DNA from: a virus
Taxonomy: Duplodnaviria > Caudoviricetes
IMG/VR virus record: IMGVR_UViG_3300025723_000026
Location: 1 to 64,000 of that record
DNA: 64,000 bases
Reading direction: 5' to 3' (one strand)
Part shown: positions 2,844-35,546 of the stretch, piece after piece
Layout of the letters: every line of letters begins with the position of its first letter
Position numbering within the stretch: the first letter of the stretch is position 1
Position numbers and translations under genes: made by a program
The notes under the pieces: generated by a model
The model's database searches: none
Told to the model about the DNA's origin: nothing
What the model saw: only the letters and a program-made list of their open reading frames with translations

Positions 2844-5800
2844 ATGTCACTACAAATCGAAACACAGCCTTTTCAGTTTAATAGCTCCGTTACAGGTTTA
2901 TCTAGTGCTATCTTTAACTCAGTTTCTGCTGTATCTCTATCAGGTATATTCTATGGCGATGGGTCAAACTTAACCGGTGTTAGTAACTATAATGGATCTG
3001 ATATAAAAGCCCTCACTGGTAATTGGCAATCAACCTTTACTACTGTATCAGCTAAGTCAGGTAACTGGAATACAGCCTATAATAATGCAATCTATACAGT
3101 TAACGGTACCGCTAATCAAATTGTTGCAACCCCTACTGGAGCAAATACAGGAAATAACTCTGTTATAATAAGCTTACCAAATAGTGCAATATTTCCTGGT
3201 GATGTTTCTATTATTGGTAATTTAACTATAGCAGGGTCAGCTACCTATATTAATACTAAGAATCTCATAGTAGGTGATAACATTATCTATTTTAATGATA
3301 ACAATTATGGAAGCAATACCCTGGACATGGGTATTGTTTCTCATTTCTCTCAAGCCCCACTTGGCTACAACCATACAGGATTAATAAGAAGAGCAGGACA
3401 GGGAAACCCAGGTGTTTGGACTTTATTCTCTGGGTTAACAACTGAACCAGCATCTGCTACAAATATAGATTGGAATGATAAGAATATTGTAATTGATACA
3501 TTAAGTGCGAACTTAATCGGTAATGTAACAGGTAATGCTGACACCGTTACTAATGGTGTTTATACAAATCAATCATATTCTAATCCTTCATGGATTACTT
3601 CTTTAGCTGATACAAAGATTACAGGAACTACATTTGCTACTAATACTACACTACAGAGCACGTCAGCTCTTCTCACTACTCTAACTCTCACTAATACTCT
3701 TACATCTCAATTAGTTCTTAATACCACTTTTAATAACTATCAAACAAATGTAGCGAGTAGTACTGCCACTTTATTACCTACAAGTATCTATCAAAATACT
3801 TCTGGTTCATTTGTTCCCTATACGGCTATTAATTCTGTATCAGGTAACTGGAATACGGCTTATCAAGCTCTTTCAACTAATCCTTACATTCTCAATCAAA
3901 CTCTTTCTTCAACAACAACTCTTATTGGTTCTAATACAGCTAATAATACATTCTCAGAAGTCTTAGGAGGTAACTGTAATTTAGCATCTGGTACATATTC
4001 AACAATTGTCAATGGATTCAGTAGTTGTGCTACAGGTTACGCAACATTTATAGGAGCAGGAAGTGGTATTAAAGCTACAGGTAACTATGCTGTAGCTGTT
4101 GGTGGTCAGTGTAATACAGCTTCTGGTTGTTATAGTACTGTTGGGGGTGGTGTATCTAATACAGCTTCTGGTTCAAAATCCTTTGTCGGCGGTGGTGGGG
4201 CAAGTGGAGCTGGTAACACAGCATCAGCACAATATAGTATTATTGTAGGTGGTAAGCAAAACTGTATATCTGGGGTAAATTCGCACGGTATTATTGTAGG
4301 TGGTTGCAGTAACATATTATGTACAGTTGGCTCAGCAAATTACCCTGCTATAGTAGGCGGTCAAAGTAATAAACATACATACTCAGGTTATAGCTTTATA
4401 GGTGGAGGTTGTAATAATTGCACTTGCTCCCAATTTGGACAATCGCAAAATATAAACTATGCAACAGTTGTAGGTGGTAATGCAAATGCAGTAACTAATA
4501 ACTACTCAATCATTGGTGGAGGGTTAGGAAACTACAATCCATTAAGAGATTCTCAAATTGTTGGAGGTGTTGCAAACCATACTGGTGGTTATGCTCCTTC
4601 AAACTTTGTAACTGGTACTTCATTATCTGGTAATGGTTCATGTACCTGTATCTGTGGTACTAATATTCAGAACTGTTTCTCTTATCCCTTTACATCTGGT
4701 AACATTTCTGTTTATTATGCAACAGCTGCTAACCCATTAAGTGCTGGTACATTTAGTACTGCTACAATTGCTGCAACTGGTACAAACTATGTTATTCTTA
4801 ATACAGACTATAGTGCATGTTCAAATGGATTGAGTGCAACGAGCTTATATGTCTATGATAGAGCAATTAATAATACAGGTTATGATAACTTTATAGGTGG
4901 TGGAAAACTCAATACAGCTTCTGGTTGTTATGGAGTTATAGGTGGTGGTGTTTGTAATGTATCGACTGGAGCCTATGGTACTATTGCTGGTGGATGCTTT
5001 AACAAAGCAACAGGCTGTTTATCTTTTATTGGTAGTGGTAGAAATAACTGTACATCAAGCTCCAGGTCTGTAATCGTAGGTGGAGATAATAATACATCAT
5101 CCAATGGATATACGTTTATTGGTAATGGATATAATAATTGTGCATCTGGTAATGGAGCTGTGGTTGTTGGTGGTAATGGTAGCAATGTTTCGTCTGGTGG
5201 TAGTTCGTTTGTTGGAGCTGGTTCTAGTAATATAGCGTCAGGGGGACAGTCGGTAATTGTTGGTGGTATAACTAACTCTACATCAGGTTGTGTATCTACA
5301 ATCGTTGGGGGTAGATACAATTATAATCCTCTCTATAATTCTGATATTCATGGTGGTTCATTTAACCATACTGGTGGTTATGCTCCTTTAAACATCGTTA
5401 CAAGTACATCATTATCTGGTAATGGATCTTGTAGCTGTATTTGTGGTTCTAATATACAGAACTGTTTTGCTTCTGTTGCTTCTAATTCAATCTTTGCTTA
5501 CTATGCTACAGCAACAAACCCATTAAGTTCTGGTACATATACTACAGCTACCATTACAGCTTCTGGTACAAACTATGTTATCTTTAACAAAGACTTTAGT
5601 GCTTGTGTTAATGGTTTATCAGCGACTAATTTATATCTTTATGATAGTACTGTAAACAATACAGGATGCTTTAACTTTATTGGTGGTGGTGTATTGAATA
5701 CAGTTTCAGGTTGTTATGGTGTTTTAGGTGGTGGTAAATGTAATTTAGCTTCAGGTATTATGGCTATAGTTGGTGGCGGTTGCTGTAACATTGCATCTGG

Positions 5801-20381: not shown

Positions 20382-21032
20382 TTAAGTCTTATATTTACAA
20401 TTATTGAAATGAAACCGTGCCATAGTATTTTTAGCGCCTTCCTTTAAGCAATAAGGGCATTTAATTTTTTGTCGCTTAAGACCTCTATTACGCCGCCCGC
20501 CAAACGACGGTGACTCTTTGTTTCGCTGTAAAAGTGATTGGCGTATTTTTTCTTTATGCTCTTCAGTTTTATTACCTGATGCAGCTTTTCGTGCATGTTC
20601 ACGCTGCAATTCAGGGTTTTTTCTAGCAAAATTATTTGCTATCATTTTTTTTCTCGTTTCGTCACTTGCTTTGCGATTAGTGGCTTTTAAACGTAAAATA
20701 GCCTTTGTTTCATCAGTATGTCGTTTATTTTGAAACGTTAAATTATTTTTTTCTTTTGATCCGTAACCGCCACCGGGCATTAAATTGTAAGTATCAGATC
20801 GTAGACAAAAATCAGCATCAACAATTTCTGCTTCTCTATAAAGCATCTCTTCTTTGGAGTCAAAATATTCTAATATTTCTTTTGTAAAGCACGCCTTACC
20901 ATATTTGTTAATATCTCTTATAAGAGCTTTACCTGAGCCAAAATAATAATCGTTAATATCGCGGGACTGATGTACACCTATATAAAACTTATTATTAATG
21001 TTATTTGTAATTTTATACAAGTAATATATCAT
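20382..21032 (-). CDS. GIY-YIG homing endonuclease (Seg-like)
   Basis: YYLYKITNNINNKFYIGVH, YFGSG, YNLMPGGG, NUMOD3-like KRHTDETK. Confidence 0.88.
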   Translation of the reverse strand: MIYYLYKITNNINNKFYIGVHQSRDINDYYFGSGKALIRDINKYGKACFTKEILEYFDSKEEMLYREAEIVDADFCLRSDTYNLMPGGGYGSKEKNNLTFQNKRHTDETKAILRLKATNRKASDETRKKMIANNFARKNPELQREHARKAASGNKTEEHKEKIRQSLLQRNKESPSFGGRRNRGLKRQKIKCPYCLKEGAKNTMARFHFNNCKYKT

Positions 21033-21076
21033 ATAATAATATTTATGTAAAGGTAGCACATTAATCAATTAAAGAC

Positions 21077-24150: not shown

Positions 24151-24225
24151 TGGTGCGACAGGTCAGAGTTGAACTGACTTCCTTCCCGTTATGAGCAGGC
24201 CGCTCGACCGTTGAGCTTCTATCGC
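24151..24225 (-). tRNA. tRNA(CAU), elongator Met or Ile2
   Basis: Loop CT-CAT-AA, paired 1:72, CCA. Confidence 0.82.
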
Positions 24226-24589: not shown

Positions 24590-24681
24590 TGGTACTCCTG
24601 CCCGGTTCTGCCCCGGGATCGCGCCCTCATCTAGGACTTCTGGTGTATAAGACCAGTGTTTTACTGTTAAACTACAGGAGC
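24590..24681 (-). tRNA. tRNA with UAU anticodon (Ile), long variable arm and GGCAGAA T-loop
   Basis: GCTCCTG/CAGGAGT-A-CCA; stem CTGGT/ACCAG, loop CT-TAT-AC; 22-nt variable region. Confidence 0.8.
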
Positions 24682-34103: not shown

Positions 34104-34145
34104 TATTATAATATAATATAAATGTTGATAAATTCAATAAAAAAA

Positions 34146-34230
34146 ACTACAACTAGAGCGAATTCAATCTTTCGGAGGATTACTAGTACCTCGTTCTAAA
34201 CAGGAATTCTACCTGCTCTCTAATTGTAGT
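34146..34230 (-). ncRNA. Unassigned structured element 3' of tmRNA
   Basis: 13-bp closing stem ACTACAATTAGAG/CTCTAGTTGTAGT around small hairpins, followed by a U-tract. Confidence 0.45.
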
Positions 34231-34251
34231 AAATTGGTGGAGGCGAGGGGA

Positions 34252-34457
34252 CACTTAATCTCTAGCTTTCGCTAAAGCGTGGACTATATCTTCACCCTCG
34301 CGGGTGTTGGATGCTCAAGCCGGTACTCCGGTAGTCTCTGCACCTTCCTATTTCTAGGCTCGGCTCAGTATTGCCATGTTGCTTTCGCAATTTAGGTTCC
34401 ACTGAATTCTTCCAATTTATACATTATCTATTGCTAGATAAGTCGACCTGCTTGTTG
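34252..34457 (-). mobile_element. Group I intron (IA-type, no ORF) in the tmRNA T-loop
   Basis: P1 with U.G splice pair, P2-P9 helices, GGCAATACTGAGCC, GGTGCAGAGACTA and AAGATATAGTCC motifs, terminal G; removal gives AGGGG-TTCGATT-CCCCT. Confidence 0.92.
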
Positions 34458-34684
34458 ATCGAACCCCTGTGTTTATACTGTTACGTTAATATCTCTACAC
34501 GCTTAGATAAGTTTAGCATTTGATTGACTACAGGCTGCTATGGCTTACCGACCTATCTTTTTTAGTCTGCCTATTATAGTGAAGAGTCTACAACCACCCC
34601 CTGTACTATGTTTTCTAAGTATCACAGGTACTACTTTAACCTATTATTATTTCCAAAAGCTTAATAGGATCTGCTTCTGGTTCC

Positions 34685-34792
34685 TTAGGCTGCGATAGCG
34701 AGGGGAGCCATTTCGTCACAGAGACAAAACTCTGTAATTGTGTTGGCTGCCTTCTTTACCTTGGCAAGGATTGCGGAGACCTTAGTCTTTGC
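34685..34792 (-). other. tmRNA tag reading frame (35 aa)
   Basis: AKTKVSAILAKVKKAANTITEFCLCDEMAPLAIAA then TAA. Confidence 0.75.
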
Positions 34793-34892
34793 ATTTATGT
34801 TTTAATCAGCTTTTATAGTGGCCAACTGATTAACCACTGCGTGCAATACTAATTTCGAGTATAAGTCGAAGCCAGTACGCCCCCAAAATTAT

Positions 34893-34904
34893 TTATCAAA
34901 GAAC
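34893..34904 (-). promoter_or_regulatory. boxA-like element 5' of tmRNA
   Basis: GTTCTTTGATAA 8 nt before tmRNA G1. Confidence 0.55.
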
Positions 34905-34913
34905 AAAAATTAT

Positions 34914-35546
34914 TTAGTACATGTTTCTAAGCACCCACATTTGAGCACTACTTAAAGCTTTAGACCATGTTCCAAGAATCTTTGAAATATTCTGCCAAAC
35001 TGTAGACCAGTATCTAAAAGTGATCTTATTAAGAATCTTCTTAGTCTTAGTCCAAGGATGATTTTCATGAGCCTTGAGTCGATCTTGCCAAGCTTTTTCA
35101 TTAGCTGCATTTACTTCAGCTGTTGTTATAATCTCTCCCTTTACAAGTTCTAAAGACTTAAGCTTGCCTTTTACAAATACAGCATCAAATTCAATGTCCC
35201 AGGTATTACCCTCGTCGTCATCACTATAATCGTAGAAGTTAATAGTGTTTGTAATCTCTTCTTTAACTGAGGTACGACTTGACTCTACAAACTCATAAGG
35301 CCAGCAAAATTTGCCCTGCTTCTTAATCTTCTTTTCTTCAGCTTCAGACATTGTACGAACATGTTCTCCCTCTACTTTTTCAGTATAGAGATAACCATTC
35401 TTCTTAATATAATAAGCAGTCATTGTATTATCTAAAGACTTTGTTTGAAAGTCAGCTTTTGTCCAATCCTTGTTAGGAAAGGCCTTTTTAATTGCTTTAA
35501 TCAGAGGAAGCTTACGTTCACAAAATACATAATCAAACATTCCCAT
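34914..35546 (-). CDS. Hypothetical protein
   Basis: 210 aa; GGAGGT SD upstream. Confidence 0.65.
   Translation of the reverse strand: MGMFDYVFCERKLPLIKAIKKAFPNKDWTKADFQTKSLDNTMTAYYIKKNGYLYTEKVEGEHVRTMSEAEEKKIKKQGKFCWPYEFVESSRTSVKEEITNTINFYDYSDDDEGNTWDIEFDAVFVKGKLKSLELVKGEIITTAEVNAANEKAWQDRLKAHENHPWTKTKKILNKITFRYWSTVWQNISKILGTWSKALSSAQMWVLRNMY

Follow-up and report, generated by a model that had tools for sequence, protein, structure and literature searches.

A phage gene for the ribosome-rescue RNA (tmRNA), split by an intron, is encoded in the IMG/VR virus record IMGVR_UViG_3300025723_000026 (Duplodnaviria; Caudoviricetes). Most likely, a large T4-like phage here carries a tmRNA gene of the working type into which a selfish, mobile group I intron of 206 nt, lacking an open reading frame (ORF), has been inserted. 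The DNA analyzed here (hereafter "the window") comprises the first 64,000 nucleotides of this 76.3-kb record, the completeness of which is estimated at 35%. The window codes for a ribonucleotide reductase, a tail-fiber assembly protein, and a baseplate-wedge or long-tail-fiber-like protein, as well as 2OG-Fe(II) oxygenase-like proteins and a KaiC/DnaB-like ATPase. At least 23 tRNAs are found by ARAGORN and Rfam combined, 21 of them by ARAGORN alone; the two reported by Rfam without an ARAGORN call lie on the minus strand at 24154-24225 (50.5 bits) and 24593-24681 (47 bits). The virus record, the tail and baseplate genes, the ribonucleotide reductase, and the tRNAs together support a phage-borne, T4-like origin of the tmRNA gene.

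The mature tmRNA is 444 nt long and is encoded by two exons on the minus strand (34884-34458 and 34251-34235). Exon 1 (34458..34884) was delimited by its match to Rfam RF00023 and by alignment of the spliced form to the intronless allele L060. It begins with the first base of the tmRNA (G 34884) in the 5' acceptor strand GGGGGCG (34884-34878), contains the D-loop analogue, P2, PK1, the tag reading frame, and PK2-PK4, and closes with the 5' half of the T-stem (AGGGG, 34468-34464) and T-loop nucleotides 1 to 6 (TTCGAT, 34463-34458). Exon 2 (34235..34251), read directly from the sequence as T-CCCCT-CGCCTCC-ACCA, supplies T-loop nucleotide 7 (T 34251), the 3' half of the T-stem (CCCCT, 34250-34246), the 3' acceptor strand (CGCCTCC, 34245-34239), and the discriminator A with an encoded CCA (34238-34235); it is the same as the 3' end of the intronless alleles of the family. 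When the insert at 34457-34252 is left out, the T-arm reads AGGGG-TTCGATT-CCCCT, with a 5-bp stem and a 7-nt loop, and GGGGGCG and CGCCTCC form a 7-bp acceptor stem that has G3.U70 as its third pair and is followed by the encoded ACCA. The insertion point is T-loop subsite 7 (TTCGAT^T), and removal of the intron rebuilds the loop exactly. A first-pass annotation of this DNA had proposed a tmRNA split in its T-loop with a canonical TTCGATT after excision. Reading of the minus strand bears this out, and the exon and insert coordinates and T-arm motifs it gave are exact to the base.

The insert is a group I intron (34252..34457, minus strand) identified by Rfam RF00028 and by covariation. The RF00028 match spans 34260-34484 and the full model (1-253) at 77.7 bits (E 5e-18; cut-off of 50), and the intron has a minimum free energy of -56.8 kcal/mol (z -3.4). 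P1 pairs exon positions 34462-34458 with the internal guide at 34447-34443. The remaining helices are P2 (34441-34424), P3 (34415-34411 with 34311-34307), the P4-P6 domain (34405-34342), P7 (34336-34332 with 34286-34282), P8 (34306-34293), and P9 (34277-34260). A P7.1 hairpin, CCGG-AGUA-CCGG (34331-34320), follows the 5' strand of P7 and precedes the 3' strand of P3, and the intron ends in the terminal G (omega, 34252).

Pattern scans retrieved this arrangement from 3 viral and 21 metagenome contigs. A tmRNA T-arm was present on both sides in 17 of the metagenome loci, while one locus had no recognizable 3' exon; three other metagenome matches were rejected as introns in other genes that fit the pattern by chance. 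Several of the more distant intron-bearing loci also look phage-like: a T4-type DNA polymerase is encoded at L107, an RNA ligase at L096, and tRNA arrays at several. Covariation was assessed in 14 distinct homologous introns of 197-206 nt, using a structure string composed of the helices of the first-pass annotation plus the P5 and P6 stems of the Rfam alignment (56 pairs, 782 cells). Twelve helices were upheld in the 14 homologues, with standard pairs in 99.6% of the 782 cells, compared with 28-38% in controls for which the 3' partners were slid by 1-3 columns. Changes on both sides were seen in 22/56 pairs (2-5 in the slid controls), and 0/500 shuffles reached the observed covariation score. 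Among the 14 introns, P3, P4, P5, P6, and P7 pair throughout and show no variation; the covarying helices are P2, P5a, P6a, P7.1, P8, and P9. Within P1, two sequences have A and U in place of the exon G (of UUCGAU) and the guide C, a joint change. All 14 introns have the splice-site U.G, a count that is to be read with the metagenome search pattern in mind, as the pattern itself demanded T at position -1.

Rfam and covariation thus uphold the core helices that had first been read by eye (P1, P2, P3, P4, P5, P6a, P7, P7.1, P8, and P9). The proposed subgroup IA trait stands: the P7.1 hairpin is present between P7 and P3', and two of its pairs covary (CG to UA in two sequences and GC to UA in four). 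P7.2 is absent from the window intron. The intron is taken to contain no endonuclease ORF, given its length of 206 nt and its fold into a complete core.

In the mechanism that we propose, a precursor of roughly 650 nt would fold the intron core, and the last five exon bases, UCGAU, would bind the guide sequence GUCGA of the intron. For an external guanosine, the U.G wobble at the splice site would mark the 5' cut, the terminal G 34252 would set the 3' cut, and exon ligation would rebuild the T-loop UUCGAUU. The predicted ligated junction is TTCGAT^TCCCCT (GGGGUUCGAU-UCCCCUCG). The modeled fold suggests that the window intron is active in splicing. Because the T-arm and the 7-bp acceptor stem exist only after splicing, charging with alanine and use with SmpB would depend on it. 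SmpB would be supplied by the host, in line with other phage tmRNAs, and so presumably would AlaRS. No SmpB gene was found in the record that contains the window or in five related phage records, three of which are at least 90% complete. The absence from the window's own record is weakly informative since that record is only ~35% complete; the related records suggest that host SmpB must serve.

The unspliced gene is matched by Rfam RF00023 at 34456-34876 with 45.5 bits (E 9e-17) when thresholds are relaxed. The score falls just below the threshold of 47, since the intron displaces the 3' acceptor strand; the alignment goes no farther than the T-loop and leaves the acceptor strands unpaired. 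Viral contigs were scanned for the 5' end of the tmRNA without regard to the intron, which gave 63 loci, many of them on contigs of 138-316 kb. The 13 intronless alleles of the family, which reside on phage contigs of 138-226 kb, score 90-115 bits as tmRNA and align full length to the in silico spliced tmRNA of the window. The closest of these, L060, scores 102 bits and is 83% identical to the window allele end to end. Intronless alleles in related phages, for which the first-pass annotation had suggested a search, do exist.

The tag reading frame (34685..34792, minus strand) translates to 35 aa, AKTKVSAILAKVKKAANTITEFCLCDEMAPLAIAA. It opens with the resume codon GCA (34792-34790) after an ATAAAT motif and ends in LAIAA followed by the stop codon TAA (34687-34685); the tag equals that of intronless L060. 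Homologous tags were found in 13 of the translated alleles, and the calls that ARAGORN itself makes in L046 and L029 contain homologous tags of 32-33 aa. Tags across the phage tmRNA family are 33-35 aa long and come in two conserved flavors, one basic (AKTKVSAILAKVKK…EF…LAIAA) and one acidic (AEDNSDAILAEA…NADE…ALLAA). The most frequent tag length in the 2025 tmRNA catalogue is 10 aa (PMC11915505).

ARAGORN detected no tmRNA in the window. Given five in silico splice variants and lowered thresholds, it returned either nothing or a spurious shorter call from an internal GGGGG. Because ARAGORN also misses 11/13 intronless family members that score 90-115 bits in Rfam, its silence reflects a limit of the tool and is not counter-evidence. 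Rfam at curated thresholds reports the group I intron and does not report the tmRNA. One-piece predictors had been expected to miss the gene, and both programs do. As ARAGORN also overlooks most of the intronless kin, phage tmRNAs are under-counted.

To place the intron within the family, we used a maximum-likelihood tree of mature tmRNA sequences (20 rows, 17 different alleles). The intron is present in 4/17 alleles and absent from 13/17, and near-complete relatives of 184-226 kb are also intronless. The four intron-bearing alleles require at least three gains or losses on the tree; a single clade containing them costs 198 log-likelihood units and is rejected (AU p 1.8e-68). Between intron-bearing loci (15 pairs), the introns are 94.2-100% identical, compared with 67-90% for the mature tmRNAs. 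L004 and L091 differ at 0/206 intron positions versus 46/449 exon positions, and the window and L002 have introns that are 96.6% identical next to a protein that is 72% identical. Ribozyme constraint could account for part of this conservation. Constraint alone is insufficient, because the peripheral helices tolerate change in the wider alignment.

Two loci are informative about how the intron was acquired. Over 3,901 bp, up to GGGGTTCGA at the T-loop, L004 matches the intronless loci L078, L030, and L055 at 100% identity; past this point come T, the intron, and then a downstream flank like that of L003. One tmRNA sequence is known, with a single-base difference, both with and without the intron. 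At L091 the intron is a clean insertion, and both flanks are syntenic to L078 at 82-92% identity, which rules out a purely chimeric origin. Position -1 is U (T) in the four intron-bearing alleles first compared and C in 12/13 intronless alleles, a difference that fits co-conversion, the requirement for a U.G wobble, or both. At the level of sequence, a near-identical intron in diverged alleles, together with L004, is unusually direct evidence of recent intron movement. Sporadic presence, the failure to form a clade, and excess conservation are typical of a mobile selfish element and not of a conserved device for regulation. Our preferred reading is thus a selfish, mobile intron that recently moved between co-occurring, related phage tmRNA alleles; the route of transfer between phages is one that we infer.

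Beyond these contigs, BLAST against 50,697 deposited phage genomes gave only two matches, each of 48 nt and in the intron core, to other uncultured phages. A T-loop-anchored exact-pattern scan of 185,579 species genomes gave 0 matches, although a scan of this kind cannot prove absence from bacteria. An exact-pattern scan of 185,579 species genomes with the intron core only retrieved one match, a tRNA intron with an HNH ORF. At this locus (L108:2825-3424), a related core occupies a tRNA anticodon loop together with an HNH-like ORF, on a contig labeled as a Gammaproteobacteria MAG. A group I match at L086:1475-1745, in the genome that also contains L060 (G001), was set aside as an unrelated intron in a tRNA gene.

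No endonuclease gene lies within 10 kb of the window tmRNA. The nearest homing endonuclease gene, 13 kb off, is a GIY-YIG ORF of 228 aa inside the tRNA array (20382-21068, minus strand; Pfam score of 23.8 bits, just above the cut-off). This ORF, probably a free-standing homing endonuclease, has a relative in the GIY-YIG ORF at L003:3603-4358. A 210-aa ORF upstream of the tmRNA gene (34914-35546) was rejected as an endonuclease: it has no Pfam match, belongs only to a PHROG of unknown function, and is also conserved beside intronless alleles. A family of ORFs of 176-212 aa begins 20-80 nt past the CCA end of three other intron-bearing tmRNAs (L003:6399-7037, L098:633-1163, and L089:2937-3584). 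The PHROGs annotation of this family is HNH or homing endonuclease, a label for which Pfam gives weak support. Its members have N-terminal zinc-finger-like motifs, and more copies occur elsewhere in L003, L032, and L091. The window contains no homologue of these tmRNA-adjacent ORFs. The first-pass annotation had also suggested looking for a matching endonuclease in related phages; L003, L098, and L089 provide candidates, while none adjoins the tmRNA of the window.

The endonuclease-like ORFs beside the L003, L098, and L089 tmRNAs make collaborative homing a reasonable but unproven account of how the intron spreads. On this account, which we consider less likely than not and which combines spread with immunity, free-standing endonucleases by phage tmRNA genes would cut intronless T-arms (TTCGAC^T), the proposed target being …GGGGTTCGACTCCCC…. 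The ORF-less intron would be copied in during repair and would then split the target, thereby protecting its own allele. Collaborative homing would specify the mechanism of the selfish-element explanation and is compatible with it. Besides the position of the ORFs just past the CCA end, it is favored by the makeup of L004, in which an L003-like intron (99%) and an L003-like downstream flank are joined to upstream sequence identical to L078, as in co-conversion, and by the differing exon -1 base in the intron-plus and intron-minus alleles first compared. It is weakened by the lack of both an ORF homologue in the window and an endonuclease gene within 10 kb of its tmRNA, and by the weak Pfam support for a nuclease fold in the candidate ORF. 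Moreover, ordinary recombination of co-infecting T4-like phages could yield the same pattern.

Other rearrangements were observed in tmRNA genes of the family. In L003, on a contig shared with L105, a 589-nt insert (5141-5729) interrupts PK1 between the 3' strands of stem 1 and stem 2. It carries an ORF of 179 aa with an Endonuclease_7/HNH match (5206-5745; Pfam score of 73.6 bits); a 14-bp stem formed by GTGCTGGTATTCCC and GGGAGTATCAGCAC closes the insert, in which we detected no ribozyme. Together with the T-loop intron, this insert gives the L003 tmRNA gene two intervening sequences. In two intronless alleles (L083:46-497 and L066, minus strand, about 876-1326), the 3' end is duplicated: after TCCCCTCGCTTCCA comes TTCCCTCGCCTCCACCA (CTACCA in L066). 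To judge from their sequences, these duplications look like a recombination scar at the T-arm/acceptor region.

The first-pass annotation had suggested that splicing serves as a timing or GTP/Mg-sensing switch, by which the phage would set the supply of functional tmRNA through the splicing rate. Group I splicing requires guanosine and Mg, and splicing is structurally required before the T-arm and acceptor stem can form; both points suit such a switch. The distribution of the intron does not. It is absent from most alleles of the family and from near-complete related genomes, it is scattered on the tree, and the same tmRNA sequence exists with and without it at the cost of a single base. The intron is also better conserved than the gene that hosts it, and in the alignment of 14 introns we saw no conserved, regulatory feature beyond the minimal ribozyme core. 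We therefore do not retain the switch and consider it very unlikely.

The body of the window tmRNA was compared with that of L060 in light of a further alternative, namely, that the intron does not splice or the tmRNA is decaying, leaving a pseudogene. On the tree, no terminal branch is longer than that of the window allele (0.15), and the PK3-PK4 region of this allele (34490-34584, minus strand; mature positions 301-395) matches L060 at only 57/95 bases (60%), compared with 98/100 between the nearest alleles, L060 and L002. ARAGORN, in addition, rejects even the spliced form. In contrast, the window allele and L060 are 91-94% identical in the tRNA-like domain, P2, PK1, and the tag ORF, and the intron has kept every helix as well as the splice-site U.G and its terminal G. 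One helix in the divergent region has apparently been swapped in a compensatory manner (TTGTAG/CTATAA versus GTATGTG/CACATAC), as read by eye from the alignment, and the ARAGORN result extends to 11/13 intronless relatives as well. A dead gene is thus quite improbable. The divergence of PK3-PK4 may reflect replacement or relaxed constraint, and partial functional decay of the tmRNA body is possible.

Misassembly or bacterial contamination that joined the intron or tmRNA to phage DNA is extremely improbable: although L004 is short (4.2 kb) and its nearest relative changes exactly at a conserved 13-nt stretch, the same intron occupies the same site in at least six further independent contigs from several samples, and the L091 insertion has both flanks syntenic to L078.

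Two elements flank the window gene. The motif GTTCTTTGATAAATAATTTT (34885..34904, minus strand) immediately precedes the tmRNA and occurs once in the window. In the family, the motif G-W-TCTTTGA-Y-AA is found ~8-20 nt upstream of tmRNA base 1 and is followed by a less conserved ATAAATA. The core G-W-TCTTTGA is kept in 14 of the 15 family loci compared over this flank, although the sequence farther upstream differs. This putative element could be boxA-like or T4 late-promoter-like; we take it to be closer to the boxA of rRNA leaders than to a T4 late promoter. If boxA is correct, the 5' end of the tmRNA would arise from processing, not from transcription initiation. A promoter scan predicted no sigma-70-type promoter upstream of the tmRNA gene. 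Directly after the CCA end is a three-way structured element with a long closing stem, followed by eight U (34138..34230, minus strand). Its minimum free energy is -27.9 kcal/mol (z -4.1), and the predicted fold makes it a possible terminator; L087 has the same flank. On another contig with an intron-form tmRNA, L102:6410-6688 (minus strand) gives a weak, full-length match to bacterial RNase P RNA class A inside a tRNA array (43.8 bits, E 2.7e-10; cut-off of 100), which could represent a reduced phage RNase P RNA.

The intron-containing tmRNA is one of three major forms of the gene (PMC11915505). Williams described it first, in 2002 (NAR 30:179; cited in PMC11915505), and it is characterized by a group I intron at T-loop subsite 2, 3, 7, or 8 (PMC11915505). 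The catalogue lists 883 unique intron-form sequences from 21 bacterial phyla, with most introns at subsite 7; endonuclease genes are found in 4.1% of tmRNA introns, some of them within the P7.1 region (PMC11915505). The first-pass annotation, which cited a T-loop intron in Clostridium botulinum tmRNA, was correct that the layout is known and understated how widespread it is. As in the bacterial genes, the window intron is at subsite 7 (between loop nucleotides 6 and 7), has U at -1 paired with a P1 G, ends in a terminal G, rebuilds the T-loop exactly, has a P7.1 region, and lacks an endonuclease gene, as is usual. It differs in its host, a T4-like phage and not a bacterium, and in its length of 206 nt, compared with a mean of 293 nt for the founding set (PMC11915505). 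The features of the intron-form tmRNA that we examined are all present in the window, which therefore belongs to this known group. The phylum table of the catalogue covers Bacteria and Archaea only, and its text mentions phage only for DS6A (PMC11915505). Our literature searches found no published phage intron-form tmRNA.

Published phage tmRNAs include those of cluster C mycobacteriophages, such as Bxz1, and of Bacillus phage G, for which no intron is mentioned (PMC4131195). The family described here resembles them in its one-piece members, its large, tRNA-rich phage genomes, and the absence of a detected SmpB gene. It is set apart by its unusually long tags of 33-35 aa and by the lack of a close match in the 50,697 deposited phage genomes. 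Group I introns have also been described in the anticodon loops of bacterial and phage tRNAs (bioRxiv 10.1101/2020.01.27.920355). There, too, a small ribozyme core sits inside a tRNA-like loop and follows a U at -1, while the window intron is inserted in the T-loop of a tmRNA. A further parallel comes from aquatic T4-like phages. The psbA gene of cyanophage S-PM2 contains an ORF-less group I intron and is neighbored by the free-standing homing endonuclease F-CphI. Like the S-PM2 intron, the window intron is found in a T4-like aquatic phage, lacks an endonuclease of its own, and is sporadically distributed, and endonuclease-like ORFs adjoin the host gene in some relatives of the window. Unlike psbA, the host gene here is a non-coding RNA, and the window has no adjacent endonuclease gene.

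The novelty of this locus thus resides in its host: the mechanism is already known, and the finding adds large T4-like phages to the bacteria that have the intron-form tmRNA. More speculatively, phage tmRNA genes might have at their T-arm end a battleground of selfish DNA, with endonucleases that cut intronless alleles, spread of the intron by repair copying, and shielding of the alleles that receive it, and with scars as alternative outcomes. The stem-closed HNH cassette in PK1 and the duplicated 3' ends might be such scars, a reading that we offer with similar reserve. If the battleground reading is true, these phages would provide natural pairs that differ in the presence of the intron and are otherwise identical, through which intron gain could be studied in wild populations.
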